A stretch of DNA of 64,000 nt from Candidatus Kapaibacterium sp. (lineage in GTDB: Bacteria > Bacteroidota > Ignavibacteria > Kapaibacteriales > UBA2268), in the NCBI GenBank assembly GCA_963665665.1, contig OY762428.1:3013200-3077199 (forward strand). Direction: 5' to 3'. Position numbers and translations under genes: made by a program. How positions within the stretch are numbered: the stretch's first letter is position 1; every line of letters begins with the position of its first letter. Under the pieces are notes generated by a model. That model was not told where the DNA came from. It made no database searches and was given only the letters and a program-made list of their open reading frames with translations. Below are positions 1,466 through 49,560 of this stretch, piece after piece.

Positions 1466-1557
1466 TTATTTTCCGGGGATTGATAATTTTTTGGGGTAGT
1501 ATAGGTTTAAATTATTTGTTTGAGTAAGGAAGATAACTGAACCAAATAATTGGTTGC

Positions 1558-1720
1558 TACTCAGCTAAGATGATATTATTCTGTTTTGAAAAGAATAATT
1601 GAGAAATTGTAATTACCCGATTTGTCGGGGCAGGCTTTCAGAGCTTGCGATAGAAGAATACACTTGTATTTTGTATAAAAATATGAAGAACAGACTCTTC
1701 GTTGCTCTCAGAGTAACATT
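1558..1720. repeat. Dispersed palindromic element copy A (5' module tactcagctaagatgatatt... plus hairpin module)
   Basis: Shares tactcagctaagatgatattatWctgttttgaaaagaaYaattg and the gagcttgcgaNNgaagaat...atgaagaaNNgaNtcttcg...ctcagagtaacat palindrome with the copies at 21369, 13519 and 36724. Confidence 0.6.
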
Positions 1721-1795
1721 TCCTGGATTTTTAAACATCTGACATGTTTTCCTTTTATGCTGAGTTGTTACTCTTTTCATTACGAATAAAAACAA

Positions 1796-11110: not shown

Positions 11111-11190
11111 TATTATCATGCCTGACCTCCCCAAACCCCTCTCCTTCGGGGAAGTTGCCACACCTCGTGTGTTTGGGAGGTGTCAGAAGC
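11111..11190. repeat. Left boundary repeat of the repeat island (about 40 bp, near-identical copy at 14318-14390)
   Basis: ctctccttcggggaagttgccacacctcgtgtgtttgggaggtg recurs at 14340-14385 with 2-3 mismatches. It contains the hairpin cctccccaaac...gtttgggagg. Confidence 0.6.
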
Positions 11191-11199
11191 TAAGCACCA

Positions 11200-12615
11200 A
11201 TGTTCGAAGATATTTCCGCCCTGGTCGGAAGCAAAGAAAGAAAACCACCCCTGTATTCCCCTCCTCCGCGAGGAGGGGATAAGAAGTTAAATATCATAGA
11301 ATTAACTCCTCATCCTTCCGAAGGAGGTGGCCGGGGGGAGGTAGGAAGGTTCGGAAGCAAAGCACCAATGTTCGAACCTATTGCAGCCTTATTCTTCTTC
11401 AAAGCCCGCCCCTTCGGGGAGGGTTTGGGAGGGGTCAGGAATATTGCAGCAATGTTTTGCTTTATTGCTGCCTTGTTCGGAGTCATTGCCGCCCTGGTCG
11501 GAAGCAAAGCAAGAAAACCACCCCTATATTCCCCTCCTACTTTAGGAGGGGATAAGAAGTTAAATATCATAGAATTAACTCCTCATCCTTCCGAAGGAGG
11601 TGGCCGGGGGGAGGTAGGAAGGTTCGGAAGCAAAGCACCAATGTTCGAACCTATTGCAGCCTTATTCTTCTTCAAAGCCCGCCCCTTCGGGGAGGGTTTG
11701 GGAGGGGTCAGGAATATTGCAGCAATGTTTTGCTTTATTGCTGCCTTGGTCGGAGTCATTGCCGCCTTGTTCCGAAGCAAAGCAAGAAAACCACCCCTAT
11801 ATTCCCCTCCTACTTTAGGAGGGGATAAGAAGTTAAATATCATAGAATTAACTCCTCATCCTTCCGAAGGAGGTGGCCGGGGGGAGGTAGGAAGGTTCGG
11901 AAGCAAAGCACCAATGTTCGAACCTATTGCAGCCTTATTCTTCTTCAAAGCCCGCCCCTTCGGGGAGGGTTTGGGAGGGGTCAGGAATATTGCAGCAATG
12001 TTTTGCTTTATTGCTGCCTTGGTCGGAGTCATTTCCGCCTTGTTCCGAAGCAAAGCAAGAAAACCACCCCTGTATTCCCCTCCTCTGCGAGGAGGGGATA
12101 AGAAGTTAAATATCATAGAATTAACTCCCCCTTCTTCCGAAGGATGTGCCCGGGGGGAGGTAGGAAGGTTCGGAAGCAAAGCACCAAAGTTTGATGATAT
12201 TGCCGCCCTGGTCGGAAGCAAAGCAAGAAAACCACCCCTGTATTCCCCTCCTCCGCGAGGAGAGGATAAGAAGTTAAATATCATAGAATTAACTCCCCCT
12301 CCTTCCGAAGGAGGGGGGCGGGGGGAGGTAGGAAGAGTCTATGGTAATGCACCGATGTTCGAACCCATTGCCTCCTTATTTTCCATCAAAGCCCTCTCCT
12401 TCGGGGAGGGTTTGGGAGGGGTCAGAGTCATTGACGCCTTGGTCGGAGTCATTGCCGCCTTGTTCCGAAGCAAAGCAAGAAAACCACCCCTATATTCCCC
12501 TCCTACTTTAGGAGGGGATAAGAAGTTAAATATCATAGAATTAACTCCCCCTCCTTCCGAAGGATGTGCCCGGGGTGAAGTAGGAAGGGTCGAAAGCAAA
12601 GAACAAATGTTCTAA
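11200..12615. repeat. Tandem array of about five 273-bp units (one shortened to 180 bp), GC-rich, each unit carrying three UUCG/GCG-loop hairpins
   Basis: Units begin near 11241, 11514, 11787, 12060 (180-bp variant), 12240 and 12480 with over 90 percent identity. Per-unit hairpins are cccctcctc-cgc-gaggagggg, ccttc-cgaagg and cccc-ttcg-gggg. There are no stops in several frames on both strands, as expected for stop-free repeats. Confidence 0.8.
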
Positions 12616-12794
12616 GTCATTGCCGCCTTGTTTGAAGATAATGAACTCTTGGTCGACACTATTGCAGCAATGTTTTGCTTTATTGATGCCTTGTTCGAAG
12701 CTATTGCAGCAATGTTTTGCTTTATTGCTGCCTTGGTTGAAGATAATGAACTCTTGGTTGAAGCTATTGCAGCAATGTTTTGCTTTATTGCTGT

Positions 12795-12975
12795 CTTGGT
12801 CGGAGTCATTGACGCCTTGTTCGGAGTTATTGCTGCCTTGTTCAGAGTCATTGCTGCCTTGTTCAGAGTTATTGCTGCCTTGTTCGGAGTTATTGCTGCC
12901 TTGTTCAGAGTCATTGCTGCCTTGTTCAGAGTTATTGCTGCCTTGTTCGGAGTTATTGCTGCCTTGTTTGAAGAT
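12795..12975. repeat. 21-bp microsatellite array A (about 8-9 copies of attgctgccttgttcRgagtY)
   Basis: Direct visual periodicity. The motif derives from a segment of the 273-bp unit (gtcattgccgccttgttccgaagc). Confidence 0.75.
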
Positions 12976-12982
12976 AATGAGT

Positions 12983-13290
12983 AACCTCAATAAGGTCAAA
13001 CAAGTCCTCAATAAGGCTAAACAAGTCCTCAGTAAGGCTAAACAAGTCCTCAGTAAAGTCAAACAAGTCCTCAGTAAAGTCAAACAAGTCCTCAGTAAAG
13101 TCAAACAAGTCCTCAATAAAGTCAAACAAGACCTCAGTAAGGCCAAACAAGACCTCAGTAAGGCCAAACAAGACCTCAATAAGGTCAAACAAGACCTCAG
13201 TAAGGCCAAACAAGACCTCAATAAGGTCAAACAAGACCTCAGTAAGGCCAAACAAGACCTCAATAAGGCTAAACAAGTCCTCAATGAAGC
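12983..13290. repeat. 21-bp microsatellite array B (about 15 copies of aaacaagWcctcaRtaaggYc)
   Basis: Direct visual periodicity. One + frame reads a perfect heptad (KQVLSKA/KQDLSKA) up to a stop at 13321. Confidence 0.75.
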
Positions 13291-13518
13291 CAAATTTCAC
13301 TACATTAAGGCCAAACAGTAGTTCAATACCACCGGCCAGGGCAGTTTAAAGCTTTACCAATAAAGCAATTAGCCCAAACATTTGGATTCTGGTTCAAAAC
13401 AGCGTTGAAGTAAGGGAATTATCCGGTTCATTGAAACCACAGGATAGGGAATTAAGTCCGGCGGCCTGTTCATTTGGGTGGAAGAACGGGTAAACTGAGC
13501 AAAAGAATGAGGTGTTAT

Positions 13519-13653
13519 GTTGTCATTCCCCGACACGTCACCGAAAAATCGGTGCAGGCAGGGGCAGGCTTCCGGAGCTTGCGACTGAAGAATCCATCTT
13601 TCTTGCGGATAATTTATGAAGAATGGATCCTTCGCTTCGCTCAGGATGACATG
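13519..13653. repeat. Dispersed palindromic element copy B
   Basis: tgtcattcc...gagcttgcgactgaagaatccatc...ttatgaagaatggatccttcgcttcgctcaggatgacat: nested inverted repeats. Confidence 0.6.
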
Positions 13654-13952
13654 CAGTTTTACCATCGTCAAGTTCAATAGCCACGTGCTTTAGCTCGTGG
13701 ATAAAGATGCAAGGTGCGGAGGCAAAGAAAAAGAATCCACCCCGACTCGCTGCGCTTGCCACCCCTCAACTGGAGGGGAATTATTTAAGAATCCACCCCG
13801 CCCTTCGGGGAACAGTGAGCTAATGTCCCCCTCAACGAGGGGGTGGCCGTTAGGCCGGGGGAGGATTCTTCGATTTGTAATTATTAGTTTATCAATTAGG
13901 AAGTCCACCCCCGTCCTTCGGACACCCCCGCCAGCGGGGGACATTCCCATCC

Positions 13953-14030
13953 GTCATTCTGAATGAGCTTGCGACTGAAGAATCCATCTTCGTTTGCAGA
14001 TAGTGTGTGAAGAATCCACCCCTGCCTGTC
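13953..14030. repeat. Dispersed palindromic element, partial copy E
   Basis: gtcattctgaatgagcttgcgactgaagaatccatcttcg...gaagaatcca: left half only, then diverges. Confidence 0.45.
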
Positions 14031-14460
14031 CCGACGTGTCGGGAACTCGCTGCACTCGCCACCCCTCAACGAGGGGAATTTTAAGAATCCACCCCCGCCC
14101 TTCGGGCACTCGTCCTAAATTAGGAGGGGATAAGAAATTAAATATCATAGAATTAACTCCTCATCCTTCCAAAGGAGGTGGCCGGGGGGAGGTAGGAAGG
14201 GTCGGAAGCAAAGCACCGATGTTCTAAGTCATTGCCGACTTATTCTTCTTCAAAGCCATCCCCTTCGGGGAGGGTTTGGGAGGGGTCGAAAGCAATGCAC
14301 TGATGTTTTAAGCCATTGCCGCCTTATTCTTCTTCAAAGCCCTCTCCTTTGGGGAAGTTGCCACACCGCGTGTGTTTGGGAGGGGTCGTCAACTGAATTG
14401 TAATAATCAATAACTGCGACTTTACAAATTACGTGGATTCCGGTTTCAAAAATCATAAAA

Positions 14461-14512: not shown

Positions 14513-15028
14513 TTAATCATTTAGCTTGACAACTTTCATTTCAATTTTATCAAGTGGTCCGTCCATGCGGTCGCGCGGGGAGTTTACGATTTTATCAGCA
14601 ACATCCATACCTTCGGTTACCTGGCCGAAAACTGTATATTGCCTGTCCAAGTGCGGAGAGTCCTGAACCATAATAAAGAACTGAGAAGTAGCGCTGTTAA
14701 TATCATTTCCTTTTCTTGCAGTTGAAAGGATGCCGCGTTTATGGGAAATGTCGCTGAATTCAGCAGGAACGGTTTTCTGGCCCGGGGCGCCCATGCCCCA
14801 TGTATTCCTGGGTTTATCTTTAGAATTCGGGTCGCCGCCCTGGATCATGAATCCGGGTATTACCCTGTGAAATGCTGTTCCGTCGTAGGAGCCTTCTTTA
14901 ACCAGGTTCTCAAAATTCGCGCAATGCTTAGGAGCAACATCCGGCCAGAGTTCCAAAATTATCTTACCCATTTCCTCACCATTCTGGCTTGCTGTCATTT
15001 CGTATTTCGGTTTATTTGTATTTTCCAT
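14513..15028 (-). CDS. ppiB: Peptidyl-prolyl cis-trans isomerase, cyclophilin type (cytoplasmic paralog)
   Basis: FHRVIPGFMIQGGDP plus downstream cyclophilin blocks (SMAN-like GKDINSATSQFFI); no signal peptide. Confidence 0.85.
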   Translation of the reverse strand: MENTNKPKYEMTASQNGEEMGKIILELWPDVAPKHCANFENLVKEGSYDGTAFHRVIPGFMIQGGDPNSKDKPRNTWGMGAPGQKTVPAEFSDISHKRGILSTARKGNDINSATSQFFIMVQDSPHLDRQYTVFGQVTEGMDVADKIVNSPRDRMDGPLDKIEMKVVKLND

Positions 15029-15038
15029 TTATCTTCCG

Positions 15039-15671
15039 TTAATCATTTAATTTAACAATTTTCATTTCAATTTTATCAAGAGGACCGTTTTTCTTATCAA
15101 CTCGTGAGTTAACTACTTTATCAGCAACGTCCATTCCACTCAGCACATGTCCGAAAACAGTATATTGTCTGTCTAAGTGCGGGGAATCTTCAACCATAAT
15201 AAAGAACTGCGAAGTTGCACTGTTTATGTCTCCGCCTTTCCTTGCAGTTGAAAGAATACCGCGTTTATGGGAAATATCGCTGAACTCAGCCGGTACTGTT
15301 TTCTGGCTCGGGTCACCCATTCCCCAGGTATTTCTTGGTTTATTTTTAGAGTTGGGGTCGCCTCCCTGAATCATAAACCCCGGTATTACCCTGTGGAATG
15401 CCGTACCATCGTAAAATCCAGTTTTAACAAGATTATCAAAGTTTGCGCAATGCTTTGGAGCTACATTCGGCCACAATTCCAGTACAATCTTTCCAAGTTC
15501 TTTTCCCTTTTGGGTAACAGTAATCTCATATTTCGGGTTTGTAGATTTTTCTATTGATTTTTCTGCTACTTTCTTTTCTTCCTTCTTTGTTGCTGTTTCT
15601 GTTGATGAGCAGGAAATCATTGTTATTGCCAGCAGCATTGCAAGCGCACTACCCATAAATTTCTTTAACAT
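15039..15671 (-). CDS. Peptidyl-prolyl cis-trans isomerase, cyclophilin type, lipoprotein paralog
   Basis: Same cyclophilin core (FHRVIPGFMIQGGDP). N-terminal signal with lipobox-like ...MISCSS. GGAGG Shine-Dalgarno 6 nt upstream of the ATG at 15671 (the ORF-track start at 15704 is less likely). Confidence 0.8.
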   Translation of the reverse strand: MLKKFMGSALAMLLAITMISCSSTETATKKEEKKVAEKSIEKSTNPKYEITVTQKGKELGKIVLELWPNVAPKHCANFDNLVKTGFYDGTAFHRVIPGFMIQGGDPNSKNKPRNTWGMGDPSQKTVPAEFSDISHKRGILSTARKGGDINSATSQFFIMVEDSPHLDRQYTVFGHVLSGMDVADKVVNSRVDKKNGPLDKIEMKIVKLND

Positions 15672-15693
15672 ATTTGCCTCCAATTCTAATAAA

Positions 15694-16398
15694 TTATTTA
15701 ACAAGTTCTTTCACTTCCACAGAAAATATTTTTATCGGTTCTTTCGGACAACCGTCGTCATCGCCTCGATCTGACGGTTCTACGTCAACGGCTCCGATAG
15801 CCTCGACAACATCCATCCCGGATATAACGTTTCCGAATATCGTATATTTTGGTTTAAGCCTTTTGGCTTCTTTCATGCAGATAAAAAACTGGCTTGTATT
15901 GGTATTCGGCCCTGCATTTGCCATCCCCACAATACCCTCGCGATAGCCGTAACGGTAAATTACATTCGTAGAATCAATTTCATCCTCGAATTCACCGTCG
16001 TAAATACTTTCGCCGCCTTCGCCCCATTCTGATTTCATACTTTTAAACCGGGTGTTACCGTCGCCTGACTGAATTACAAAACCATGCGCCACACGATGAA
16101 AAAGAATACCGTTGAAATACATTCTTTTCGAAAGTTGCACAAAATTTTCAACAGTTCGGGGAGCCTGGTTTCCGAATAACCCAATAACAATTGTTCCCAT
16201 GCTTGTCTTAATTTCTGCCTTGTGGGTATATTCCGGCAAATCATTTTTCGAAATACTATCAGATTTAACTTCCTGAGCTAAATTATTGATGGCAGAAATA
16301 TTATCGGCTTCTTTTTTACCTTCGGCCTTTGAGCCTTCAAGGCATGAACTAAGCATGATAAAACTTAAAACGAATAAAATTGTAAGTAAAGATTTCAT
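15694..16398 (-). CDS. Peptidyl-prolyl cis-trans isomerase, cyclophilin type, secreted paralog (divergent)
   Basis: FHRVAHGFVIQSGDGN core; signal peptide with LSSC lipobox; longer N-terminal extension. Confidence 0.75.
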   Translation of the reverse strand: MKSLLTILFVLSFIMLSSCLEGSKAEGKKEADNISAINNLAQEVKSDSISKNDLPEYTHKAEIKTSMGTIVIGLFGNQAPRTVENFVQLSKRMYFNGILFHRVAHGFVIQSGDGNTRFKSMKSEWGEGGESIYDGEFEDEIDSTNVIYRYGYREGIVGMANAGPNTNTSQFFICMKEAKRLKPKYTIFGNVISGMDVVEAIGAVDVEPSDRGDDDGCPKEPIKIFSVEVKELVK

Positions 16399-20599: not shown

Positions 20600-21379
20600 T
20601 TGGAAAAAAGAAATCAGAGAATGGATTTTGGAATAGAAAAGCCCGGCAAACCGATAATTATCGCGGGGCCTTGTTCCGTAGAATCAGAAGATCAAATCTC
20701 CTCTGTCAGCAAGGTAATATCTTCCAAGGGAATACGATACCTTCGTGGCGGCGCTTTCAAGCCCCGCACTTCCCCGAACAGTTTCCAGGGACTCGGGGCT
20801 AAGGGTATTGAATACATAAGGAAAGCTGCTGATAATAATAATATGCTGGTTGTTTCCGAAGTTCTTGACGGTGATCAACTTGATGATCATTACGATGATA
20901 TTGATATTATTCAAGTTGGCAGCCGTAATATGTCTTCATCTGCTTTGCTGAAAAGAATAGGAAAAAAAACCTCTATTGATAAAAAGCCTGTATTGCTGAA
21001 ACGCGGATTTTCAGCTACAATCAGCGAATTCCTCTACGCGGCTGATTATATCAGGAATGAAGGGAACCCCAATGTATGGCTTTGCCTCAGGGGTATCAGG
21101 ACATTTGAACAGATAGATTCTATTTTCCGGTTTACGCCCGACCTTGGTTCAATCCTTGAATTGAAGCATAGAACGGATCTGCCTGTTATTTATGATCCCA
21201 GCCATGCAGCCGGCGATTCAGATTATGTTGTAAAAATAGCAAAAGCAGCACTGATGCTCGGCGCGGACGGACTCCTGATAGAAACACACCTTTCACCGGA
21301 AAATGCACTCACCGACGGCAAGCAAAGTATTCATCCCGATATGCTGGATGAAATTCTGAATTCATTACTACTCAGCTAA
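20600..21379 (+). CDS. 3-deoxy-7-phosphoheptulonate (DAHP) synthase, class I-beta
   Basis: IIAGPCSVES...RGGAFKPRTSP.SFQGLG...IIQVGSRNM...LLKRG.SAT near-colinear with Thermotoga/Bacillus-type DAHP synthase; 259 aa. Confidence 0.8.
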   Translation: MEKRNQRMDFGIEKPGKPIIIAGPCSVESEDQISSVSKVISSKGIRYLRGGAFKPRTSPNSFQGLGAKGIEYIRKAADNNNMLVVSEVLDGDQLDDHYDDIDIIQVGSRNMSSSALLKRIGKKTSIDKKPVLLKRGFSATISEFLYAADYIRNEGNPNVWLCLRGIRTFEQIDSIFRFTPDLGSILELKHRTDLPVIYDPSHAAGDSDYVVKIAKAALMLGADGLLIETHLSPENALTDGKQSIHPDMLDEILNSLLLS

Positions 21380-21512
21380 GATGATATTATACTGTTTTGA
21401 AAAGAACAATTGTAAAATTGTCATTCTGATGGAGCGAAGCGACTGAAGAATCCACTTGTTTTAGGATAAAATTATGAAAAATGGACTCTTCGCTATTGTT
21501 CAGAGTGACATT
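21369..21512. repeat. Dispersed palindromic element copy C (overlaps last codons and stop of the DAHP synthase gene)
   Basis: tactcagctaagatgatattatactgttttgaaaagaacaattgtaaaattgtcattctgatggagcgaagcgactgaagaatcca...atggactcttcgct...cagagtgacat. Confidence 0.65.
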
Positions 21513-21572
21513 TTCTGATATTATTAAAAAATATCTAACATATTTTACTTTATACAGAGTAGTATCCTGAAT

Positions 21573-22457
21573 TCAATCAAGTAAATTTCTCAACGCTTCT
21601 TTCAGGCCGGGATATTCAAATTCAAAGCCGTATTGATTCAGTTTTTCCGGTATGGCTTTTTGTCCTTCAATTACTATTGTAGCAGACTCCCCGAGTAATA
21701 ATTTTAAGACAAATTCCGGAACAGGGAAGAGGTTGGGCCTTCCTAAAACTTCAGCCAGCGTCCGGGAGAATATTTTCATATTTTCAGGGTTAGGGGAGCA
21801 GGCATTGTAAACACCTCTGAAATCCGAATTTTCAATTGCAAAGATCATACTTTTTATCAAATCGCTGATATGAATCCAGGAAATGAATTGCCTTCCGCTT
21901 CCAAGTGGCCCGCCTATAAAGAATTTATATGGCAAAAGCATTTTTTCCAAAGCGCCGCCTGTTTGGGAAAGAACCATTCCTATACGGGGCAGTATTACCC
22001 TGGTTGATTCTCTTGCCAGCAGTGCTGCTTTTTCCCATTCGGCAGTCAGTTCGGCAAGGAATCCACGGCCCGGAGCTGAAGATTCGTCTTTATTTTCAGT
22101 TGAATTTCCGTAATATCCCACAGCCGAGGCATTCAGAAAAAATTCAGGTTTGTTTTCGCATCTATTAATCGCTTCTGAAATTTCACCGGTGAAATCCACC
22201 CTGCTTGAAGTCAGAATTTTCTTATAACTATCAGTCCATTTGCTTCCTGCTATCGAGGCTCCGGCAAGATTAGCAATTCCGTGAACACCGGAATGAATTA
22301 ATTCCAGGGCAGCAGGTTTATCAATTGTTTCAGCACAGTTTTCTAATTTTTTTCCGGGGTTTCTACTTACCCCAATAATATCGTAGTTTTTATTCAACTC
22401 ATTTGTTAAGGCTGAACCTATCATCCCGCCGGCGCCAAATACTACAATTTTTTTCAT
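21573..22457 (-). CDS. TIGR01777-type (YfcH-like) NAD-dependent epimerase/dehydratase family protein with C-terminal DUF1731
   Basis: N-terminal Rossmann VFGAGGMIGSAL; about 295 aa; C-terminal region typical of the YfcH family. Confidence 0.65.
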   Translation of the reverse strand: MKKIVVFGAGGMIGSALTNELNKNYDIIGVSRNPGKKLENCAETIDKPAALELIHSGVHGIANLAGASIAGSKWTDSYKKILTSSRVDFTGEISEAINRCENKPEFFLNASAVGYYGNSTENKDESSAPGRGFLAELTAEWEKAALLARESTRVILPRIGMVLSQTGGALEKMLLPYKFFIGGPLGSGRQFISWIHISDLIKSMIFAIENSDFRGVYNACSPNPENMKIFSRTLAEVLGRPNLFPVPEFVLKLLLGESATIVIEGQKAIPEKLNQYGFEFEYPGLKEALRNLLD

Positions 22458-25400
22458 AAATCAAGAACCCTTTTGATTTCCTTTATAAACTGCTTCATGT
22501 TAAATGGTTTTTCAAGTCTTCCTTTGAATCCGAATTTTTTATAATTGGCTACTACCGGCTTGGTGGAATGACCACTGAATACAAGGGCTTTTACATCAGG
22601 ATCGTAGCTTCTTAATTCATTTAGTACGTCAAGTCCGTCTTTATCATAACCTTTCAGGGTCATATCAAGAATTACAAGTTCATAAGATTCACTGTTTAAT
22701 GCATTTATATAATTGAACATAACTTTATCAGGGTTCGACAGGCAAGTCATATTAAGTTCCAGGTCCTCTGCAATTTCTTTCATATTTTCAATAATACTTT
22801 CATCATCGTCAAGAAGTAGTATTTTTACCGGGCGGTCGAAACTCTCGAATTCAGCAGCCTTTTTAGTATCCGATTCCCCGGATACTACCATTGGAAGTAA
22901 TATCGTAAATTTAGTTCCTTCGTCAATTTTCGATTCTACACTTATCCTTCCTCTATGTTTGCTGATAATATAAAATACTGATGCAAGCCCTAACCCGTGG
23001 CCTTTTTCCTTTGTTGTGAAAAACGGTGTGAATATTTCCTTTAGGTGTGATTTCGGAATTCCCATTCCCTCGTCGGATATTTCAATCCTGATATATTTTC
23101 CTTCTTTAAGCTTCGGGATTTCCGATTTGCCGAGTTGTATCATTGAAGTCCTGACAGACACTTTTCCGCCTCTTGGCATAGCCTGGTCGGCATTAATCAG
23201 CAGGTTTGTAAATACCTCGTTCAGTTGTTTTTCGTCCGCAAGAACAGGAGGTATCGAAATATCCAGATCATATTGTATATCAGACCTGGAACCGGACAAA
23301 GCCATTTCAGCGCTGTCTTTTATTGTTAAATTGATATTTGTTGTTGACAGTATAGGTTCGTCAGATTTAGAAAAGGTCTGGAACTTTGTTGCCAGGGCTG
23401 TAGCCTGTTCTATTGATTTTGCAATTTTATCTAAGTGTTTAATTACTCTTTCAGGTTTCATTTTCGCAAGTTCTACACTCATGGACATAGCCGTAAGCAT
23501 ATTTTTAAAATTATGAGCAATTCCACCGGCCAGAATACCAAGGGATTCGAGCCGTGAAATTTTCTGAAGTTCAGCTTCGGATTTTTTCCTGTCGGTTACA
23601 TCAACAAACATAACGGCAACGTAATTTTGAGCTGTCTGGAAAGCATAAACTTCATAAAAACCTTTGATAATTTTATCATCATATTTAACATCTTCATAGT
23701 ACCATGGCTCGCCGGTTCTTGCCACATTTTTATAATGATCGGGCATATCTGTTTCAGCCAATGGCGGGAAGGCTTCGCCAATAGTTTTACCAATGAATTG
23801 TTTGCAATCAACCCCAAGTATTTTATTAGCAGTAGGGTTGTAATCAATAAAGTTCAGGCTGTCGTCCTGTTTTAACTCGTAGAGGAAAATACCCATTGGG
23901 GTATTATTTATTATGTTTTTAAGTTTCTGTTCACTTTCCCGCAATGCTTCCGCAGCATTCTTTTGGTCGGTAATATCTCTGAATTCAACTGCACGGGCTT
24001 TTATTCCTTTATATGGGATATTCCTGGCTTCAAGCCTGAGGGGATAAATTTCCCCGTCTTTTCTTATGCCTTCAACTTCATAAGGTTTCTCGTAACCGGA
24101 AAGAATTTTTTCCATAACATGATCACGCCAGTCGGGTGCTATCAGCAGCAGGCCATCCATTCCTGTCAGTTCATCAACAGAAAAGCCGCTCATTTCACTC
24201 ATTCCCATATTGCAGTCAAGAATTACACCTTTATCATGAATTGCAATTCCGCCGAAAGAAGCATTGTGCAGGGCTTTGAATCGGGTTTCGCTTTCCTCGG
24301 CTTTCTCTCGGGCATTTACAATTTCAGTTATATCTTCAAATGTTACGACTACTTCGTCAAGAGTCTTACCATCAGATGAGAATTTTGGCATTGAATTGAT
24401 ATTAATCCACCGTATGGCATCCTGTTCCGGCAAATGTATCCCCATTTTCGAATCCCGGACAGCTTCAATTGTTTTCAAGGTTATCATTGCCGGATGAGTT
24501 TCGCCGGGATAAGGAGAACCATCTTCGTGGATTGAACGCCAACGGGGATCCATCGATGTTTTTCCGAAAAGCTGATCTTTTGTTAACCCCAGGATTTTGG
24601 AAGCAGAATTGTTGGCATAAATTATTTTTCCGGAAATGTCGTGATAAACAACTCCCTGTGTCATATTTTCGAACAGGAAGCGGTGTTTTTCTTCGCTTTG
24701 TATCAGGGCTTCTTCGAATTGCTTTCTTTCCGACATATCAACATCAATACAAAATAATTCTTTGCCCTTACCCGGGATTTCCACAATAGCATGGCTTGAA
24801 TATACATCAACATACGAGCCGTCTTTTCGTTTCAATGTCATTTCCGATGATGGAATGGGTTTTCCTGTTTCGTTCATTCCTTTAATAGCTGCTATGACTT
24901 CTTCCTGCATTTCTTCAGGAATAATCAGATCGAGCAGGTTTTTACCAATGGCTTCTTCCGGAGTATAGCCATATAATATTTCAGACGCCTTATTCCAGTA
25001 CATGGTAGTTCCGTCAATCAGATAGCCCTGTACTGAAACATGATGTACATCCTGCAACAGGTTCCGGAAACGCATTTCACTTTGTTTTAATAATTCTTCT
25101 GCTTTTTTCCTTTCTGTTAAATCAATTCCAAGGCATGTAACATCAACAATTTCACCTTTGTTATCTTTTGTCAGAACATTTGCCCAAGAGATCATCCTTA
25201 ATTCACCGGATCTGGTAACTATCTCATTTTCGAAAGTTGAAAGTGCTGTAGTATCTTTCTGCTTTATAACAGTAAGAAAAACATCTTTAACCTTTTGAGA
25301 TATTTCTTCCGGAATGAACATGTCAAACCAGTCACTGCCAATCACATCTTTTTCTTCCCACCCGGTAAGTTTCAGGAAGTGCCTGTTAGCAAAAGTAATT

Positions 25401-28400
25401 TTTGCCTGGCTGCTAAGGGCAATACCTATCTGAGGTGTATCCATAAGAATGTTACGCCATTTTCTTTCACTTTCCTGTAGTGCCTTTTCAGCTTTCTTTC
25501 TTTGCGAAATATCCCGGATAACTACCATTGTTCCTTTCGAGTCAGCAGATTCAAAAAGTGATCCGTTCAGCTCGCCGGCAAAAATTTCTCCGTTCTTCCT
25601 TTTCATATTTAATTCAATATTTCCGGTATTATTTCCGGATTCAAGGGATTTCCTGAAAGCTGAAACGGCATACTGAACAGAGGATTCTTCCAGAAATTCT
25701 GTGAAATGCCTGCCTATCATTTCATTCGGAGGACATTGAAACAGTTTAATCGAAGAGGGTGAGGCATAAGTTATTATTCCCTGGTTGTTGGTTAATGAGA
25801 TTAAATCTGAAGACTGTTCGGTGATAGACCGGAATTTTTTCTCGCTTTCAATTAGCGCATCTTCAGTTCTTCTTCGTTCGATAATTTCCCAGGCAAAATC
25901 AGCTAACTTCTGAATAGTATTAACGTCCCTGTTTGTATAATCTGAAATTTTATTGCCAACTCCGAGAATAGCTTTAACCTTGTTCTTCCTGATCACAGGA
26001 ACCAACAGTTCTCTTATAATATCCACATGCCCTTCCGGCATTCCTTTTTTATATTTCAGTGATTGATAATCATTGTGAACAACCGGCTTTTTTACTTTTA
26101 TGCAGTCCACCCAAACCCCGGCTTCGGATATGGGATAGTGTACCTTGTAATCAGAAATTTTGCAGTGATATTGTAATGTATTCCCTGACCAGGCCTGAAT
26201 GGAAAGTGTTTCCTGATCGTCTTCCAAGAAATGATAGAATCCGATACTGCTGCCGGTAAGTTTTTCGGATTCTTCAAGAAATTTTTGCAGAAGTTCCTTT
26301 GTGGAATGGCCTGTTGCGTATTCTATCAGATTTAATTGTGCCAGCCTGATTCTCCTGTCATGCTTTTGCTCGCTGATATCAACAAATGACGCCATAATAG
26401 AAACAGGTTTGCCATCTTCATCATATATCATATTTGTGGATAGCTGGATGTCGAAAGTACTTCCATTCTGGTGTTTTGCAACCATTTCACCTGCCCATGA
26501 ACCACCCCTGAATAATTCCCTGACAATTTCTTCAGCTTTTTCCTGCTGCTCCCAGAACGACACTGAAGGTTTCCCGATAACCTCCTCCGATTCAGAATAC
26601 CCCCACATTTTCAGGAAAGCTTCGTTAACATACACCAGGTTGGCGTTCAGGTCGCCAAACGCAATAGCATTATTCGAAGACGCAATAGCATTTTTATTTA
26701 TCTTCAAATCCCGTTCTGTCTGTTTTTGTTTTGTAATATCCTCACCGGAACTTAGGGTGCCAATAATAGTCCCGTTCCGGTCTTTTATTATTGTATTATG
26801 CCAGGCAATAAGTTTTATTTCGCCGTTTTTATCGAGGATTTCATTTTCACCATATTCAATATTTTTCTCTTTGCCGGTCAGAATATCTGAATATAAACTT
26901 TTTCTTATTGGCTTTATATCCGAGGGAATAAAATTATCGAACCAGTTTTTTCCAATTATTTCAATTTTTTCATATCCGAGTACCTCGCAGCCTTTTTTGT
27001 TTATCATAGTAACAGTGCCGCTGGTATTCAATGTCAGAATAATTACACCGGCAATATCAAGATAATTTTGCGCTCTGTCTCTTTCTTCAAGAATAGCATT
27101 TTGGGCGAGTTTTTCTTTTGTTATATCTCTGAGGAATGAGCTGAAAAATCCACCATTAATATCGTGATATTGAGTACTTACATAAATATTAATTGTTTTA
27201 CCGTCTTTTCGGCGGTGTAAGGTTTCAAATTTAGTTATTCCTGAATTTTTTAATTCCTCTATATGTTTTTTTGTTTCTTCGGGATTTTCTTTGGCCTCTA
27301 TTTCTGATAAATTCAATCCTGTCATTTCTTTAACAGAGTATCCGTATAAGCTTTCGCAGGATTTATTTGCTTCCTGGATTTTCATGTCATTACTAATAAT
27401 AATAAAGCCGTCAGAAGACGTTTCAATAATGGAACGATATTTCTCCTCGCTTTTTCTTAGTTCAAATTCTGCTTTTTTACTTTCGGTAATATCTGTCAGT
27501 GCCACAGCAAATTGCCCCTTTTTCGGACAATAAGCTTTTACCTCCCACCATTTATCTAAGTATTCGGAGTGATTTACAACAGATACGGATTCCCCGGTTA
27601 GTGCAACTTTGCCATATATGTTAAGCCAATAGTCTTCGAGGTTTGGGATAATATCGAGGCCTCTTTTGCCAAGGATATCTTCTTTTCTCAGCAGGGTGAA
27701 TTTTTCGTAAGCGGTATTAGCATCCAGCCATACAAAATCAACAACCTTGCCTTTATCGTCCAGAATTATCTTATGAAGAGCTACTCCAACGTTTATATTC
27801 TCGAAAAGGCTTCTGAATTTTTTTTCGCTTTCTTTCAGGCTGTGTTCATATTCTTTTTGTTTTGTAATATCTGTTGAAATTCCAACAAGAAGCGAAGGAG
27901 TTTCATCAGGACTTTTAACAAGTTTGGTTCTTGCGTAGAGTATAGATTCCGAGCCATCCGGCATAAGGTTAACTACTTCCCCTGCCCACTCACCGTTTTT
28001 CATGGTACTGTCAACTATCTCTTTTTGGGTGGCTCCTTTTTCCGGATTTTCTCCAAAAGTTTGAACATTTTTACCAATTAAATCTGCACGTTTTTTACCC
28101 ATTGTTTTTTCAACGGACTTGTTAACATAAATTACGTTTCCATTCAGGTCAGTAGCTGTTATCCTGTCTTCAATCTGGTCAAGAAGATTGAAATAGAATT
28201 CTGATGAGTCATGGCCGGTATCCGGGCTTTTTATTGTAGTCAGTGACTCGAAAATCAGAACATAGTACTTAATTGCATTATTTCCATCAAAATTAGGCAG
28301 TACATTTAATCTATAATAGATGTCTTTGTTTTTCAGAAAAGGAGCAAGTATTTTGTTTTCCCGTTCGGTTGAATTTTGTTCTGTAGCGGGTAAAAAAATA

Positions 28401-28594
28401 TTGTCAAAATTATTTTTGCCGATTAATTCACTGAGATAATTACTATCTTTTTTGCTTTCAGGCAGAAGAGACCTGAGTATTTCATTGAAATATTGAATCT
28501 TATAGTCCATATCAACAATCAAAGCCGGAAAAGGATAATAATCCAGCATTTCTCTTAGAAATCTCATTTCAAATATCGGTATCTTGTTTGTCAT
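22454..28594 (-). CDS. Hybrid sensor histidine kinase/response regulator with a very large array of tandem PAS/PAC and GAF sensor domains (2046 aa)
   Basis: Repeated PAS signatures throughout. C-terminal HisKA (HNFKNMLTAM), HATPase_c (GHGLGLA) and receiver domain (KILLLDDDE...D...K). Confidence 0.85.
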   Translation of the reverse strand: MTNKIPIFEMRFLREMLDYYPFPALIVDMDYKIQYFNEILRSLLPESKKDSNYLSELIGKNNFDNIFLPATEQNSTERENKILAPFLKNKDIYYRLNVLPNFDGNNAIKYYVLIFESLTTIKSPDTGHDSSEFYFNLLDQIEDRITATDLNGNVIYVNKSVEKTMGKKRADLIGKNVQTFGENPEKGATQKEIVDSTMKNGEWAGEVVNLMPDGSESILYARTKLVKSPDETPSLLVGISTDITKQKEYEHSLKESEKKFRSLFENINVGVALHKIILDDKGKVVDFVWLDANTAYEKFTLLRKEDILGKRGLDIIPNLEDYWLNIYGKVALTGESVSVVNHSEYLDKWWEVKAYCPKKGQFAVALTDITESKKAEFELRKSEEKYRSIIETSSDGFIIISNDMKIQEANKSCESLYGYSVKEMTGLNLSEIEAKENPEETKKHIEELKNSGITKFETLHRRKDGKTINIYVSTQYHDINGGFFSSFLRDITKEKLAQNAILEERDRAQNYLDIAGVIILTLNTSGTVTMINKKGCEVLGYEKIEIIGKNWFDNFIPSDIKPIRKSLYSDILTGKEKNIEYGENEILDKNGEIKLIAWHNTIIKDRNGTIIGTLSSGEDITKQKQTERDLKINKNAIASSNNAIAFGDLNANLVYVNEAFLKMWGYSESEEVIGKPSVSFWEQQEKAEEIVRELFRGGSWAGEMVAKHQNGSTFDIQLSTNMIYDEDGKPVSIMASFVDISEQKHDRRIRLAQLNLIEYATGHSTKELLQKFLEESEKLTGSSIGFYHFLEDDQETLSIQAWSGNTLQYHCKISDYKVHYPISEAGVWVDCIKVKKPVVHNDYQSLKYKKGMPEGHVDIIRELLVPVIRKNKVKAILGVGNKISDYTNRDVNTIQKLADFAWEIIERRRTEDALIESEKKFRSITEQSSDLISLTNNQGIITYASPSSIKLFQCPPNEMIGRHFTEFLEESSVQYAVSAFRKSLESGNNTGNIELNMKRKNGEIFAGELNGSLFESADSKGTMVVIRDISQRKKAEKALQESERKWRNILMDTPQIGIALSSQAKITFANRHFLKLTGWEEKDVIGSDWFDMFIPEEISQKVKDVFLTVIKQKDTTALSTFENEIVTRSGELRMISWANVLTKDNKGEIVDVTCLGIDLTERKKAEELLKQSEMRFRNLLQDVHHVSVQGYLIDGTTMYWNKASEILYGYTPEEAIGKNLLDLIIPEEMQEEVIAAIKGMNETGKPIPSSEMTLKRKDGSYVDVYSSHAIVEIPGKGKELFCIDVDMSERKQFEEALIQSEEKHRFLFENMTQGVVYHDISGKIIYANNSASKILGLTKDQLFGKTSMDPRWRSIHEDGSPYPGETHPAMITLKTIEAVRDSKMGIHLPEQDAIRWININSMPKFSSDGKTLDEVVVTFEDITEIVNAREKAEESETRFKALHNASFGGIAIHDKGVILDCNMGMSEMSGFSVDELTGMDGLLLIAPDWRDHVMEKILSGYEKPYEVEGIRKDGEIYPLRLEARNIPYKGIKARAVEFRDITDQKNAAEALRESEQKLKNIINNTPMGIFLYELKQDDSLNFIDYNPTANKILGVDCKQFIGKTIGEAFPPLAETDMPDHYKNVARTGEPWYYEDVKYDDKIIKGFYEVYAFQTAQNYVAVMFVDVTDRKKSEAELQKISRLESLGILAGGIAHNFKNMLTAMSMSVELAKMKPERVIKHLDKIAKSIEQATALATKFQTFSKSDEPILSTTNINLTIKDSAEMALSGSRSDIQYDLDISIPPVLADEKQLNEVFTNLLINADQAMPRGGKVSVRTSMIQLGKSEIPKLKEGKYIRIEISDEGMGIPKSHLKEIFTPFFTTKEKGHGLGLASVFYIISKHRGRISVESKIDEGTKFTILLPMVVSGESDTKKAAEFESFDRPVKILLLDDDESIIENMKEIAEDLELNMTCLSNPDKVMFNYINALNSESYELVILDMTLKGYDKDGLDVLNELRSYDPDVKALVFSGHSTKPVVANYKKFGFKGRLEKPFNMKQFIKEIKRVLDL

Positions 28595-36575: not shown

Positions 36576-36723
36576 TTGAATAAGGATAAATATTTATGAA
36601 TATGCATTCTGATCTGTACACATCAACTTATATTGTGCAATATGCTGTATTCATTATCATCTTTAATTTTTATTACTGTTCAGCAAATATAATATTATTC
36701 TGTTTTTTTATAAATAAGGTTTC

Positions 36724-36866
36724 TACTCAGGTTGGTAAAATATATTGCTGTTATTGAAGAAAAATACAGAGAAATGTCATTCTGACCGAGCTAGCGAGGG
36801 AAGAATCCATCTTTTTCTTAAAGAATTATTGAAGAATGGATTCTTCGCTGGCGCTCAGAATGACCG
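36724..36866. repeat. Dispersed palindromic element copy D
   Basis: tactcag...gaaatgtcattctgaccgagctagcgagggaagaatccatc...ttgaagaatggattcttcgctggcgctcagaatgac. Confidence 0.6.
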
Positions 36867-36991
36867 CTTTATACAATTTTTCCAGATTTTCAAAGTTCAG
36901 CTGAATAGTAACAAAAAAGAATATGATTGCTGTGAAAGACTTAACTGTCTCTGGCTGTAAAAATAATTATTTTTGCAGGAAGGCGAATTTT

Positions 36992-43260: not shown

Positions 43261-43545
43261 ATGGCAAACAACCCTATTGCAAACCCGATGATAGTTCACA
43301 GGGTGGAGGATGATGACTGGGCGGTTCTATTTGATCCCGACGCTAACGAAACTTACGCTCTCGATCCTGTTAGTTCTTTTGTGTGGCAATTATTGGACGG
43401 TAAGCACAGCAAGGAAGAAATTCTGGCAAAACTGGAAAAAGAATGTGAGGATGGAATTCCCGAAGAAGCTGCAACAGACCTGGATGAGTTTCTTACAGAA
43501 CTGGAAGCAAAAGCTCTTGTTGGATACGAGCAGGCAATTGGTTAA
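43261..43545 (+). CDS. PqqD-family peptide chaperone (RiPP recognition element, stand-alone)
   Basis: 94 aa; block ETYALDPVSSFVWQLLDGKHSKEEILAKL...ATDLDEFLTELEAKAL matches the PqqD pattern (..ylLN.tg..iW.lldG..t..ei...l.....v.......dv..fl..L...gl). Confidence 0.75.
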   Translation: MANNPIANPMIVHRVEDDDWAVLFDPDANETYALDPVSSFVWQLLDGKHSKEEILAKLEKECEDGIPEEAATDLDEFLTELEAKALVGYEQAIG

Positions 43546-43547
43546 TT

Positions 43548-44681
43548 ATGAAAATTGAACGCACTCCTAAAAGCCTTGACCTTGAAATTACAAGCAAGTG
43601 CAACCTAAGGTGTTCTTATTGCTCTCACTTCAATAGCGAAGGTGATACCGATACCGATTTAAGCACTGATGAATGGCTGCAATTCTTCGAAGAGCTGAAA
43701 GAATGCAACGTTATGGATGTTACTCTTTCTGGTGGCGAACCATTCATGAGAAAAGATATCCGTATCCTGCTTGACGGGATAATAAAAAATAGAATGAGGT
43801 TCGGATTTCTTACGAATGGTATTCTTTTTAATGATGACCTGGCTGAATATATTAAAACAACAGGCCGATGCAACAGTATCCAGGTTTCAATCGACGGCCC
43901 CGGCCCTGAAATTCATGATGCTTCGCGTGGTAAGGGAAGCTTTGAAAAAGCAATCGCCGGGCTTAAAACGATAATGAGACACGGCCTTCCTGCCACGGTA
44001 CGTGTTACGATAAACAAGCACAACTATAAAAAACTTCCTGAAATAGCTGAAATGTTGCTTGAAGAAGTAGGGCTTCATTCATTTTCAACAAACGCAGCTT
44101 CTCATCTCGGGCTTTGCCGTACTAATAAAGACGATGTTCAGCTTGGTGTGGAAGAATATACTGAATCAATGCAGACGATATTTACACTTGTTGAAAAGTA
44201 TGGCAACAGGATAAATGCCCAGGCAGGCCCTCTTGCATCAGGCAAGCAATGGATGGAAATGGAAAAAGCCCGGCAGAATAATTTAGATAATCTTCCCGGA
44301 TGCGGATATCTTACAAGTTGTGGCGGGATTTTCGCAAAAATGGCAATTCAGGCTGACGGATCAATGGTACCGTGTTCGCAGTTGCCGCACATGAAACTTG
44401 GTAAGGTCAACGTGGACAGCCTTGCAGATGTATGGCTGAATCATCCTGAGCTTAAACGCCTGCGTGAAAGAAGAGATATTCCGCTTGGTACATTTGACTC
44501 ATGCAAGGGCTGTTCGTATATACCTTATTGCAGGGGCGGATGCCCGGCACTGGCATATACCCTGAACGGAGATGAGAATGTTCCTTCTCCGGAATCATGC
44601 TACAGGAATTTTCTTGCTGCGGGTGGAAGATTGCCGGTTTTAGATGATAACGAGCCATTTTTTAGTCCGGGATGTTGCTGA
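43548..44681 (+). CDS. Radical SAM / SPASM-domain peptide-modifying enzyme 1
   Basis: CNLRCSYC (CxxxCxxC) near N-terminus. C-terminal auxiliary-cluster Cys array CGYLTSCGG...C...CKGCSYIPYCRGGCPA typical of SPASM. 3 nt after the PqqD-like gene. Confidence 0.85.
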   Translation: MKIERTPKSLDLEITSKCNLRCSYCSHFNSEGDTDTDLSTDEWLQFFEELKECNVMDVTLSGGEPFMRKDIRILLDGIIKNRMRFGFLTNGILFNDDLAEYIKTTGRCNSIQVSIDGPGPEIHDASRGKGSFEKAIAGLKTIMRHGLPATVRVTINKHNYKKLPEIAEMLLEEVGLHSFSTNAASHLGLCRTNKDDVQLGVEEYTESMQTIFTLVEKYGNRINAQAGPLASGKQWMEMEKARQNNLDNLPGCGYLTSCGGIFAKMAIQADGSMVPCSQLPHMKLGKVNVDSLADVWLNHPELKRLRERRDIPLGTFDSCKGCSYIPYCRGGCPALAYTLNGDENVPSPESCYRNFLAAGGRLPVLDDNEPFFSPGCC

Positions 44682-44827
44682 TGAAAATAAAATTTAGCAT
44701 CACTATCTTAAATATATACCAAACATAAAATACGTTTCCTGGATAGTTTGGTTTAACAGTGGATTAAATATAAATATTGTTTTTTGAATTTGTTCATTAC
44801 AGTAAAAATTTTGAAAATTGGATTATT

Positions 44828-45103
44828 ATGAAAAAGAAATTTAGCTATACCAGACCATCGCTATCATCATTGTCAGATGAAATATCTCAATTCTGTAATG
44901 TAGGAACAGGAGCAACTTTAGCTGATACTCCTGCTATTCAGTGTACTGTTGGTGGGGATGCACAGCTGATTTGTGTTGCCGGTACCGGTTTTTCCAGTAC
45001 GTATCCACATTGCGCTAATGGCCCTGCTGATTCAAAACTTGCATGTTCAACAGGATCAGGGGACACTAATCCCAGCTGTAATGTTGGCAATTCACCAGTT
45101 TAA
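44828..45103 (+). CDS. RiPP precursor peptide 2 (91 aa; six C-x-x-G motifs)
   Basis: MKKKFSYTRPSLSSLSDEISQF leader, then CNVGTG/CTVGGD/CVAGTG/CANGPA/CSTGSG/CNVGNS. Sits between the two rSAM genes. Confidence 0.65.
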   Translation: MKKKFSYTRPSLSSLSDEISQFCNVGTGATLADTPAIQCTVGGDAQLICVAGTGFSSTYPHCANGPADSKLACSTGSGDTNPSCNVGNSPV

Positions 45104-45130
45104 TATATTAACAATAAATACTTAATAATT

Positions 45131-46261
45131 ATGAGCGAAGAAAAAAATACAGAATTTAAAGTACCGGAATGCGGTTATCCGCTGAGCCAGATATATTTTT
45201 ACATGACTGAAGGATGCAACCTGAAATGCCGTCACTGCTGGATAGAACCGAAATTCCAGGCTTCCGGCAATAGTAAATGGCCCTCTATTGAGTTTGACCT
45301 TTTCAAGGATATATGCTATCAGGGCAGGGAACTTGGAATGAACTCAGTTAAACTAACCGGCGGGGAGCCACTGATAAATCCTGATATTGACAAAATACTT
45401 GATTTCATTTATGAGGAGAAGTTCAGGCTGACAATTGAAACTAACGGCATCGAACTGACACCTGAAATTTGTGAAAAGATTGCCCGGTGTGAAGGCACTT
45501 TTGTTTCAATCAGCCTTGATGGCTCAACAGCAGAAGAACACGAATGGGTTCGCGGTGTTCCGGGTTGTTTCGAAGCAGCATTGCAAGGCGCACGGAATCT
45601 TGTAGCCGTGGGAATAAGGCCGCAGTTTATAATGTCGATAATGAAAAGGAATGCACACCAGATAGAAGATATTATTGAACTTGCCCGGAAAGAAAACGCC
45701 GAGTCGGTTAAATACAACCTGGTAACACCTACTGCACGTGGGGAGCAAATGCACGAGGCTGGCGAAACTCTGTCGATTGAAGAATTGATCCGTATTGGTA
45801 AATGGGTGGAAGATGAATTGCAGCCAAAGTACAAAGATGTCAGGCTTCACTATTCTCATCCGGTTGCTTTCAAGCCTTTTGGCAAAATGTTTGAAAGACC
45901 ATTGGGACGTTGCGGTATATTCGGTATTATCGGAGTGCTCGGAAATGGTAAATATGCTCTTTGCGGTATCGGTGAAACTGTCCCTGAACTTGTTTTCGGC
46001 GACGCGAGAAAAGATAAACTCGCAGATGTTTGGAATAATAACCAGGTACTTAATGATATTCGTAAAGGCTTACCAAAAGATTTGAATGGTATTTGCGGGG
46101 ATTGTCTCGTTAAAAACAAATGCCTTGGTTCCTGTGTAGCCATGAATTATTATCGTCATCACGATCTGTTTGCTCCTTTCTGGTATTGCGAGGAAGCACT
46201 TAAAGCCGGACTTTTCCCCAAAACCAGGATCAAGCCGGGATCGCCATTTGAAAAGGTATAA
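45131..46261 (+). CDS. Radical SAM / SPASM-domain peptide-modifying enzyme 2
   Basis: CNLKCRHC motif. C-terminal CGIFG...C....CGDCLVKNKCLGSCVA SPASM-like cysteine array. Confidence 0.85.
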   Translation: MSEEKNTEFKVPECGYPLSQIYFYMTEGCNLKCRHCWIEPKFQASGNSKWPSIEFDLFKDICYQGRELGMNSVKLTGGEPLINPDIDKILDFIYEEKFRLTIETNGIELTPEICEKIARCEGTFVSISLDGSTAEEHEWVRGVPGCFEAALQGARNLVAVGIRPQFIMSIMKRNAHQIEDIIELARKENAESVKYNLVTPTARGEQMHEAGETLSIEELIRIGKWVEDELQPKYKDVRLHYSHPVAFKPFGKMFERPLGRCGIFGIIGVLGNGKYALCGIGETVPELVFGDARKDKLADVWNNNQVLNDIRKGLPKDLNGICGDCLVKNKCLGSCVAMNYYRHHDLFAPFWYCEEALKAGLFPKTRIKPGSPFEKV

Positions 46262-46273
46262 AACAAATACTAA

Positions 46274-48082: not shown

Positions 48083-48085
48083 CAG

Positions 48086-48961: not shown

Positions 48962-49560
48962 TGGAAAAGCACAAGCCGCAATATAATACAAGTGTCGGGC
49001 CAAGCATGTACCCGACAATGAAAAGCGGCGATGCATATATCCTTAAAGAAATATCTTCTATTGATGAAATATGCCGGGGAGATGTAATTGTTTTTCCCCA
49101 CCCTGACGAACCAATTAATGTTGTTCACAGAATTATTAGGATTTATCCCGAAGGTTTTCAAACCAGGGGAGATAATAATAACCGTAAAGATCCCTATATT
49201 GTGAAAAAGGATGATATTATCGGTGTGGTGGGCAAGGTTATCAGGAAAAATAAAAGATATACTATTCATGGCGGAAATGCGGGATTATTCATCCACAGGA
49301 TGGCTTGGGCCAGGAAATATTCCCGGCCCTATATTGTAAAGCCACTGAAGTTTTTATTGAATTTGCTGATCAGATCAAAAATATTCTTCATTTTCGGAAA
49401 TTTCTTTTCAACTTCAATCACAAAAATTAACCGAATGGGTTCCGAGCAATTTATCTTAAGTGTAAATAAAAAACCGGTTGGAAAAAAAGAATCAAAGGAA
49501 TCTGCGTGGATAATTAGTTTCCCTTATAGTTTGTTTATTAATCCGAAGAAATTACCATGA
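48961..49560 (+). CDS. S26 signal-peptidase-like serine peptidase (SipW/ER-type Ser-His), candidate leader peptidase
   Basis: GPSMYPTMKSGD (SM.PT catalytic Ser box), GDVIVF, and VVHRIIRI (His box of SipW/archaeal-type S26). Stop overlaps start of precursor 3 (ATGA). Confidence 0.6.
   Translation: MEKHKPQYNTSVGPSMYPTMKSGDAYILKEISSIDEICRGDVIVFPHPDEPINVVHRIIRIYPEGFQTRGDNNNRKDPYIVKKDDIIGVVGKVIRKNKRYTIHGGNAGLFIHRMAWARKYSRPYIVKPLKFLLNLLIRSKIFFIFGNFFSTSITKINRMGSEQFILSVNKKPVGKKESKESAWIISFPYSLFINPKKLP

Follow-up and report, generated by a model that had tools for sequence, protein, structure and literature searches.

The closest described counterpart of the repeat presented here is the system of Chenal et al. 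(Nat Commun 2025; PMC11893778), which defines the Neisseria NTS (CGTCATTCCCGCGMAVGCGGGAATCYRG), written CGTC-ATTCCCGCG-MAV-GCGGGAAT-C-YRG, and a wider class of Ssn-related motifs (SRM) that includes the Neisseria NTS/dRS3 repeat. The SRM pattern, HGTCWYN(0-2)YYVSBRHN(0-5)WNVSBRGN(0-2)RNCYNB, was built from 29 genomes of four phyla, and 71% of ssnA homologues have such motifs nearby (PMC11893778). SsnA binds the motif as single-stranded DNA only and on one strand only, does not bind RNA, and cuts a few nucleotides upstream; cleavage needs the three nucleotides that precede the palindrome, and binding needs the C that follows it (PMC11893778). A second system with a related layout is that of the REPINs, REP doublets maintained by the Y1 HUH transposase RAYT, which two preprints describe as mostly vertically inherited and lineage-bound (bioRxiv 10.1101/2022.05.22.493013, 10.1101/2021.07.10.451892).

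The repeat studied here was found in a 64-kb stretch of DNA, referred to as the window, in which an earlier sequence-only reading had noted a dispersed palindromic element in at least four full copies and one partial copy. These copies are indeed present (c1, c2, c3, and c4, and the half copy c2b; Table 1), all five in the same orientation, and each is placed either in a repeat mosaic or in a gap where genes converge. At each of the four full copies, the two neighbors converge: c1 lies between genes for a T9SS-tail protein and SecG, c2 between the repeat mosaic and a cyclophilin gene, c3 between DAHP synthase and an epimerase, and c4 between a 1845-aa T9SS-tail protein and a ferredoxin-like protein. 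The 11-mer TGTCATTCTGA, with at most one mismatch, occurs seven times in the window against 1.5 occurrences expected, a number reached in none of 100 shuffles, and an independent repeat search places the copies in families D7, D8, D10, and D11. The element has two layers, an inner pair of inverted arms and an outer wrapper, the latter in c1, c3, and c4 only. The extent given earlier was too short for these three copies, which add a 3' module and terminal inverted repeats. Since the 5' module is absent from c2 and c2b, it constitutes a separate layer and not a part of the hairpin.

Table 1. Coordinates of the repeat copies in the window and of their parts
Feature	Position	Strand	Description
c1 composite	1554–1771	+	218 bp; wrapper and decayed arm pair
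c1 left arm	1609–1661		GTAAT head; inserted CCCGA..TCGGGG hairpin
c1 right arm	1693–1717
c2 arm pair	13522–13650	+	No wrapper
c2 left arm	13522–13595		Carries a ~45-nt GC-rich insert
c2 right arm	13625–13650	-	Canonical compact arm GTCATCCTGAGCGAAGCGAAGGATCC
c2b half copy	13953–14017	+	Family D8; intact expanded left arm (13953–13985) and spacer
c3 left 9-bp target-site duplication	21356–21364		CTGAATTCA
c3 composite	21365–21566	+	202 bp; 5' module, left arm, spacer, right arm, 3' module
c3 wrapper 5' module	21365–21419	+	Terminal inverted repeat TTACTACTCAGC
c3 left arm	21420–21453	+	Expanded SRM-like hairpin GTCATTCTGA-TG-GAGC-GAA-GCGA-CT-GAAGAATCC
c3 spacer	21454–21482	+	29 nt, last letters ATGAAAAAT; homologous to the spacers of other window copies
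c3 right arm	21483–21509	-	Compact SRM-like hairpin GTCACTCTGAACAATAGCGAAGAGTCC; partly decayed
c3 wrapper 3' module	21510–21566	+	Terminates in inverted repeat CAGAGTAGTATC
c3 right 9-bp target-site duplication	21567–21575		CTGAATTCA; overlaps the stop codon of the epimerase ORF
Epimerase ORF	21573–22457	-
c4 composite	36673–36912	+	240 bp; terminal inverted repeats TTACTGTTCAGC / GCTGAATAGTAA; 5' module partly duplicated
c4 left arm	36776–36808		Followed by the spacer
c4 right arm	36838–36864		Follows the spacer

The inner layer consists of two inverted arms of the type 5'-GTC-ATTCT-GA-GC-GNA-GC-GA-AGAAT-CC, separated by about 29 nt (29–31 nt in the window). The pair is asymmetric, with the left arm in an expanded form and the right arm in a compact form. 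On its GTCAT strand, the compact arm reads GTCATYCTGAGCG-N(2-3)-GCGAAGRATCC, for which the scan pattern GTCATYCTGAGCGN(2-3)GCGAAGRATCC was used; the expanded arm, on the left in the window copies, reads GTCATYCTGA-NN-GAGC-N(2-3)-GCGA-NN-GAAGRATCC. The fold of the arm comprises a 5-bp ATYCT/AGRAT stem, a tandem G.A, a GC clamp, and a GNA tip, with a GTC head in front and a C after the stem, and the expanded arm has one more 2-bp step and another G.A pair. Among the matches listed, the Y..R pair of the stem covaries (T/A in 107, C/G in 63, T/G in 2, and C/A in none), the two NN pairs of the expanded arms are paired in 91% and 90% of cases, as G-C, A-T, or C-G, and the tip is mostly GNA. It is this covariation that points to a self-folding hairpin in each arm, as nearest-neighbor folding of the intra-arm DNA hairpin gave about -2 kcal/mol, which is not significant and no better than shuffled sequences. 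At one locus of another organism (L311), the two stems differ (ATGCT/AGCAT on the left versus ATTCC/GGAAT on the right), and thus the arms there fold on themselves and not on each other. The complementary strand of an arm would carry T.C mismatches and TNC tips, so that the hairpin would be favored on one strand per arm only; as the arms are inverted, each DNA strand would have one correctly oriented hairpin at its 5' side. A hammerhead-like reading of the GUC...CUGAnGA elements was rejected by inspection, as the core does not fit.

The best-preserved arm pair of the window is that of c4. In c2, with an nhmmer E-value of 3.5e-10, and in c1, the left arm is interrupted by an additional GC-rich hairpin. 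In c2b, a AAGAATCCACCCC-type unit belonging to the mosaic around it takes the place of the right arm. A small CCCGA...TCGGG(G) hairpin replaces or interrupts the arm tip or 5' half repeatedly and in unrelated organisms (in the window at 1609–1661 and 13522–13595, at L217 1130–1180, and at L265) and appears to be a second, nested mini-module.

Several features of the arms are those of the SRM. GTC stands directly 5' of the stem in both arms of c2, c2b, c3, and c4, with a decayed GTA in c1; the stems, ATTCT/AGAAT or ATCCT/AGGAT, have the SRM-like ends ATTC...GAAT; and a C follows the stem directly in all intact arms (AGAAT-CC or AGGAT-CC). As in the SRM/NTS system, the hairpin is oriented, the copies are many, dispersed, and intergenic, the repeats cluster into mosaics, and, in other organisms, inverted copies of this arm type flank a single-domain GIY-YIG gene of about 95 aa. 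However, the published SRM pattern has no match in the window; it fits neither the window arms nor the canonical compact arm, and the NTS and one arm from another locus (L286) pass. With GTC, stem ends, and C kept and the pattern unmatched, the arms form a divergent subclass that the pattern misses. Unlike the SRM/NTS, with their continuous GC-rich stem of 8–9 bp, the window arms have a short, A/T-rich stem interrupted by tandem G.A and a GCGNAGC tip. They also differ in the expanded left versus compact right arm and in forming closely spaced pairs that enclose no gene and lie within an additional mobile wrapper. The work of Chenal et al. was reached by a literature search with GC-rich arm strings; the same search with AGAAT-type strings returned primers only. 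Analogous to the subterminal hairpins of IS200/IS605 elements, SRM-type hairpins are strand-specific, read as single-stranded DNA by a small nuclease, and cut outside the hairpin; however, both hairpins of IS200/IS605 lie on the same strand, whereas the arms here lie on opposite strands, and the enzyme differs.

The arms are not confined to the window. An exact-pattern scan of species-representative genomes, one genome per species, found at least 119 loci with the compact arm, in Acidobacteriota, Chloroflexota, Verrucomicrobiota, Patescibacteria, Bacillota, Proteobacteria, Nitrospirota, Ignavibacteria, and Bacteroidota, and it is also present in 38 viral-contig stretches. The expanded arm occurs at at least 120 loci in metagenome contigs; among the matches listed, an inverted arm, mostly a compact one, accompanies 63 of 107 expanded arms at no more than 200 nt, and the median spacer is 32 nt. 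A perfect-palindrome pattern searched in viral contigs retrieved unrelated palindromes only, and an 18-base expanded-arm pattern gave only chance matches within coding sequence. In other organisms, 10 of 38 pairs lie inside longer inverted flanks of several unrelated sequences, so capture in larger palindromic units seems to recur; this suggests either repeated capture of the pairs in such units or palindromic target sites. Examples of these flanks are GGCTCATGTTCAGAATYTGTGC, AAGTCGKACAATTKG, and the palindrome AAAAGTACTTTT, 25–40 nt outside the arms; the loci concerned are L253, L285, and L274; L169, L181, L183, L192, and L216; and L177, L180, L205, and L206.

The protein partner is indicated by genes that the arms enclose elsewhere. 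When every ORF in 1.97 Mb of loci with arms was compared with a profile of small GIY-YIG proteins, five GIY-YIG ORFs were found, and all five are directly flanked by arms (L104, L008, L067, L110, and L217), as are the GIY-YIG genes of L310 and L311. The flanked genes match the Pfam family PF01541 (GIY-YIG). In L217 and L067, the gene has an expanded arm 7–18 nt ahead of its start codon and a compact arm at its end, which is the polarity of the window pairs. The ssn genes of L311 (2250–3200) and L310 (2380–2978) lie within tandem arrays of miniature pairs with 4–7-nt spacers. Furthermore, arm-encoded peptide tails (DPSLRSG, DSSLRSE, SEAKK) start or end 28 of the best 120 homologues of one GIY-YIG protein. 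Three tail-less homologues (P0082, P0095, and P0106) have GTC-headed inverted hairpins on both sides that are GC-rich, e.g., GTCATCCCGGCGAAAGCCGGGACCC, and the arm of P0082, at L286, matches the published SRM pattern. By homology and context, these GIY-YIG proteins are assigned to the Ssn family; searches of NCBIfam and PDB with them returned nothing informative. Gene-less arm pairs far outnumber gene-flanking pairs in other genomes, and the window itself contains neither a GIY-YIG gene nor a transposase or HUH gene. The last letters of the window spacers are ATGAAGAA; ssn genes begin with ATGAAGAAG (L067), ATGAAAAAG (L217), and ATGAAGACT (L311), a likeness of only 8 nt, which suggests that the spacer may be a remnant of an ssn 5' leader and start codon.

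The outer layer, the wrapper, is about 200 bp long in c1, c3, and c4 and has terminal inverted repeats of its own, 11–12 nt with one or two mismatches, formed by TTACTACTCAGC and its imperfect complement. Composites with the wrapper measure about 200–240 bp, and those of c1, c3, and c4 fold as one long hairpin (z -3.8 to -4.4). The c3 5' module is 88–93% identical to that of c1 (families D10/D11). The wrapper was found in none of the other retrieved loci and is known from this window alone. On either side of c3 stands the same 9-bp sequence, CTGAATTCA, as a perfect direct repeat; around c1, c4, and c2, no direct repeat of at least 8 nt was found. The earlier description of all copies as intergenic holds for the hairpin cores but not for the c3 wrapper, which provides the final four codons of the DAHP synthase ORF together with its stop (21365–21379). 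Removal in silico of c3 together with one repeat copy changes the end of this protein, whose nearest homologue is 71% identical, from ...DEILNSLLLS* to ...DEILNSIK*, which resembles the orthologue C-termini ...DEILSKIK and ...DEILEVIR. Given the 9-bp duplication and the restored, orthologue-like end, c3 is a genuine insertion with a target-site duplication.

On these grounds we consider it likely that the copies are inverted SRM pairs that have here been captured by a wrapper, the composite having been copied to at least three sites, with a 9-bp duplication at one or more of them. In mechanistic terms, each arm would act as a single-stranded DNA hairpin that is bound by an Ssn-family GIY-YIG nuclease of about 95 aa and cut a few nucleotides upstream, and the inner pair would represent a gene-less version of an SRM-ssn-SRM cassette. 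The pair would thus become a substrate of an Ssn-type nuclease whenever the region is single-stranded, for instance in the course of replication, repair, or DNA uptake. The ~200-bp wrapper would have captured the pair in this genome, and a cut-or-copy insertion producing 9-bp duplications would have spread the composite. Observed directly are the copies, the structure of the arms and how it covaries, the association of this arm type with GIY-YIG genes, and the footprint of the insertion; we infer that an Ssn enzyme of the source organism acts on the window arms, and the choice of an enzyme that would move the wrapper is inferential as well.

The sequence-only reading is thus partly supported. 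Its suggestion of a non-autonomous mobile element of the MITE or REP type gains from the 9-bp direct repeat at c3 and the orthologue-like protein end restored by excision, and further from the occurrence of the same arms around a nuclease gene in other genomes, where gene-less pairs are far commoner. It did not see Ssn-related motifs in the nested inverted repeats; the partner known for such motifs is a GIY-YIG single-strand nuclease and not a transposase.

A further-reaching reading would make the SRM-ssn-SRM cassettes and the gene-less pairs a transposon family that moves as single-stranded DNA, with the GIY-YIG nuclease as its transposase; we consider this possible but rather unlikely. To our knowledge, GIY-YIG enzymes are not an enzyme class known to drive bacterial DNA transposition. 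If it were true, the near-identical 26-nt arms across phyla would reflect frequent horizontal spread, and the window copies would be miniature derivatives whose spacers retain the 5' leader of ssn with its start codon (ATGAAGAA).

The outer layer could also be explained by an ordinary MITE, in which a DDE-type transposase recognizes the outer TTACTACTCAGC ends and the inner hairpin merely travels along, having at present no protein partner in this organism. The composites resemble bacterial MITEs in being non-coding and about 200–240 bp long, in their terminal inverted repeats, in occurring in several copies, and in the 9-bp target duplication at c3; the identity of 88–93% between the wrappers of c1 and c3 and the 10 of 38 pairs elsewhere within longer inverted flanks would also fit. 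However, c2 and c2b have the pair without any wrapper, the arms are more conserved than the wrapper and keep the nuclease-critical GTC and C, the window lacks a transposase, and the wrapper is absent from the retrieved loci. Unlike that of MITEs, the core is a nuclease recognition pair and not a deleted transposase gene, and the duplication is kept in only one of the three wrapped copies. We know of no autonomous element with the outer ends of the wrapper. As an account of the whole repeat, the MITE is rather unlikely; it covers the outer layer only and, to that extent, is compatible with the main explanation of the inner layer.

The location of all four full copies at convergent gene ends could instead reflect selection for a role in transcripts, either as a bidirectional terminator or as an mRNA-stabilizing hairpin, an alternative that had been raised in the sequence-only reading. 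The RNA folds of the cores are stable (-28.8 kcal/mol for c3, -40.6 for c4, -33.7 for c1, and -47.5 for c2; z from -2.6 to -6.1, with -6.06 for c4), and, in c3 and c4, a run of 3–4 T comes after the hairpin on either strand. However, a consensus scan found no terminator-like site at c3 or c4, and an Rfam search of the whole window at the gathering threshold returned a tRNA-His only, with a best E-value of 0.18 in E-value scans of c3, c4, and c2, so that the element matches no Rfam family. Across phyla, it is the arm sequence itself, and not the structure alone, that is the same, and it is linked to a nuclease gene; in L311, left and right arm cannot pair together; and the characterized protein partner, SsnA, has no RNA binding (PMC11893778). 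Gaps between convergent genes are, in any case, the safest landing sites for insertions. A transcript-level role as the reason for the repeat is therefore improbable, although the copies may have a side effect on the transcripts of the convergent genes.

A REPIN maintained by a RAYT is very improbable: the layout of two short inverted imperfect palindromes with a short spacer between them, which together can fold into a single long hairpin, is shared with REPIN-RAYT systems and BIMEs, as are a single flanked enzyme gene (PMC3116915 describes a gene-bearing form in which the repeats flank the enzyme gene) and presumed recognition as single-stranded DNA, but the arm-flanked gene is a GIY-YIG gene in five of five cases and not a Y1 HUH transposase, which already contradicts this reading, the arms are headed by GTC-AT and not GTAG, and their sequence is common to many phyla.

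The SRM/Ssn system has been known since 2025, and the window repeat is a new member of it. New are the distinct arm architecture, which the published pattern does not see, its very wide distribution, and its nesting in a mobile wrapper. A very common motif of 26–34 nt is now assigned to the Ssn/SRM system, a motif which also creates spurious peptide tails (...DPSLRSG, ...DSSLRSE) on predicted proteins. Since the published pattern misses a large, phylum-spanning subclass, surveys that rely on it count too few repeats and too few genomes with them. The asymmetric arms, the covarying G.A-interrupted stem, and the gene-less pairs offer substrates on which new Ssn specificities can be tested, and such specificities are of interest as tools for single-stranded DNA; the c3 footprint indicates that such pairs can travel within another mobile unit.

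Some other features of the window were also recorded. The repeat mosaic that holds c2 and c2b spans 3.3 kb (11130–14390) between the aconitase and cyclophilin genes and resembles a NIME/BIME-type mosaic. It comprises a 273-nt unit repeated 3.6 times (96% identity), 168- and 84-nt units, a 21-nt unit repeated 15 times, many small GC-rich hairpins, and five AAGAATCCACCCC units, and it is bracketed by a 53-nt direct repeat (11132–11184 and 14335–14387, 92%). The only Pfam match of its long ORFs above the curated cutoff is a marginal DUF745 (35.3 versus 33.3 bits), next to many coiled-coil-type matches; with Pfam support nearly lacking, their coding status is doubtful. At 43261–49560, two radical SAM/SPASM enzymes, an ABC exporter, and an S26-type peptidase are grouped with small ORFs that have no Pfam matches (43261–43545 and 44777–45103), in what looks like a peptide-modification (RiPP-like) gene cluster. 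Two PAS/GAF-rich sensor histidine kinases of 2046 and 1351 aa (22454–28594 and 53142–57197) share short internal repeats (families D6 and D9). Finally, three tandem cyclophilin-type isomerase genes lie on the minus strand at 14513–16398, the first two of which contain DNA segments that are 81–88% identical at a spacing of 526 nt.
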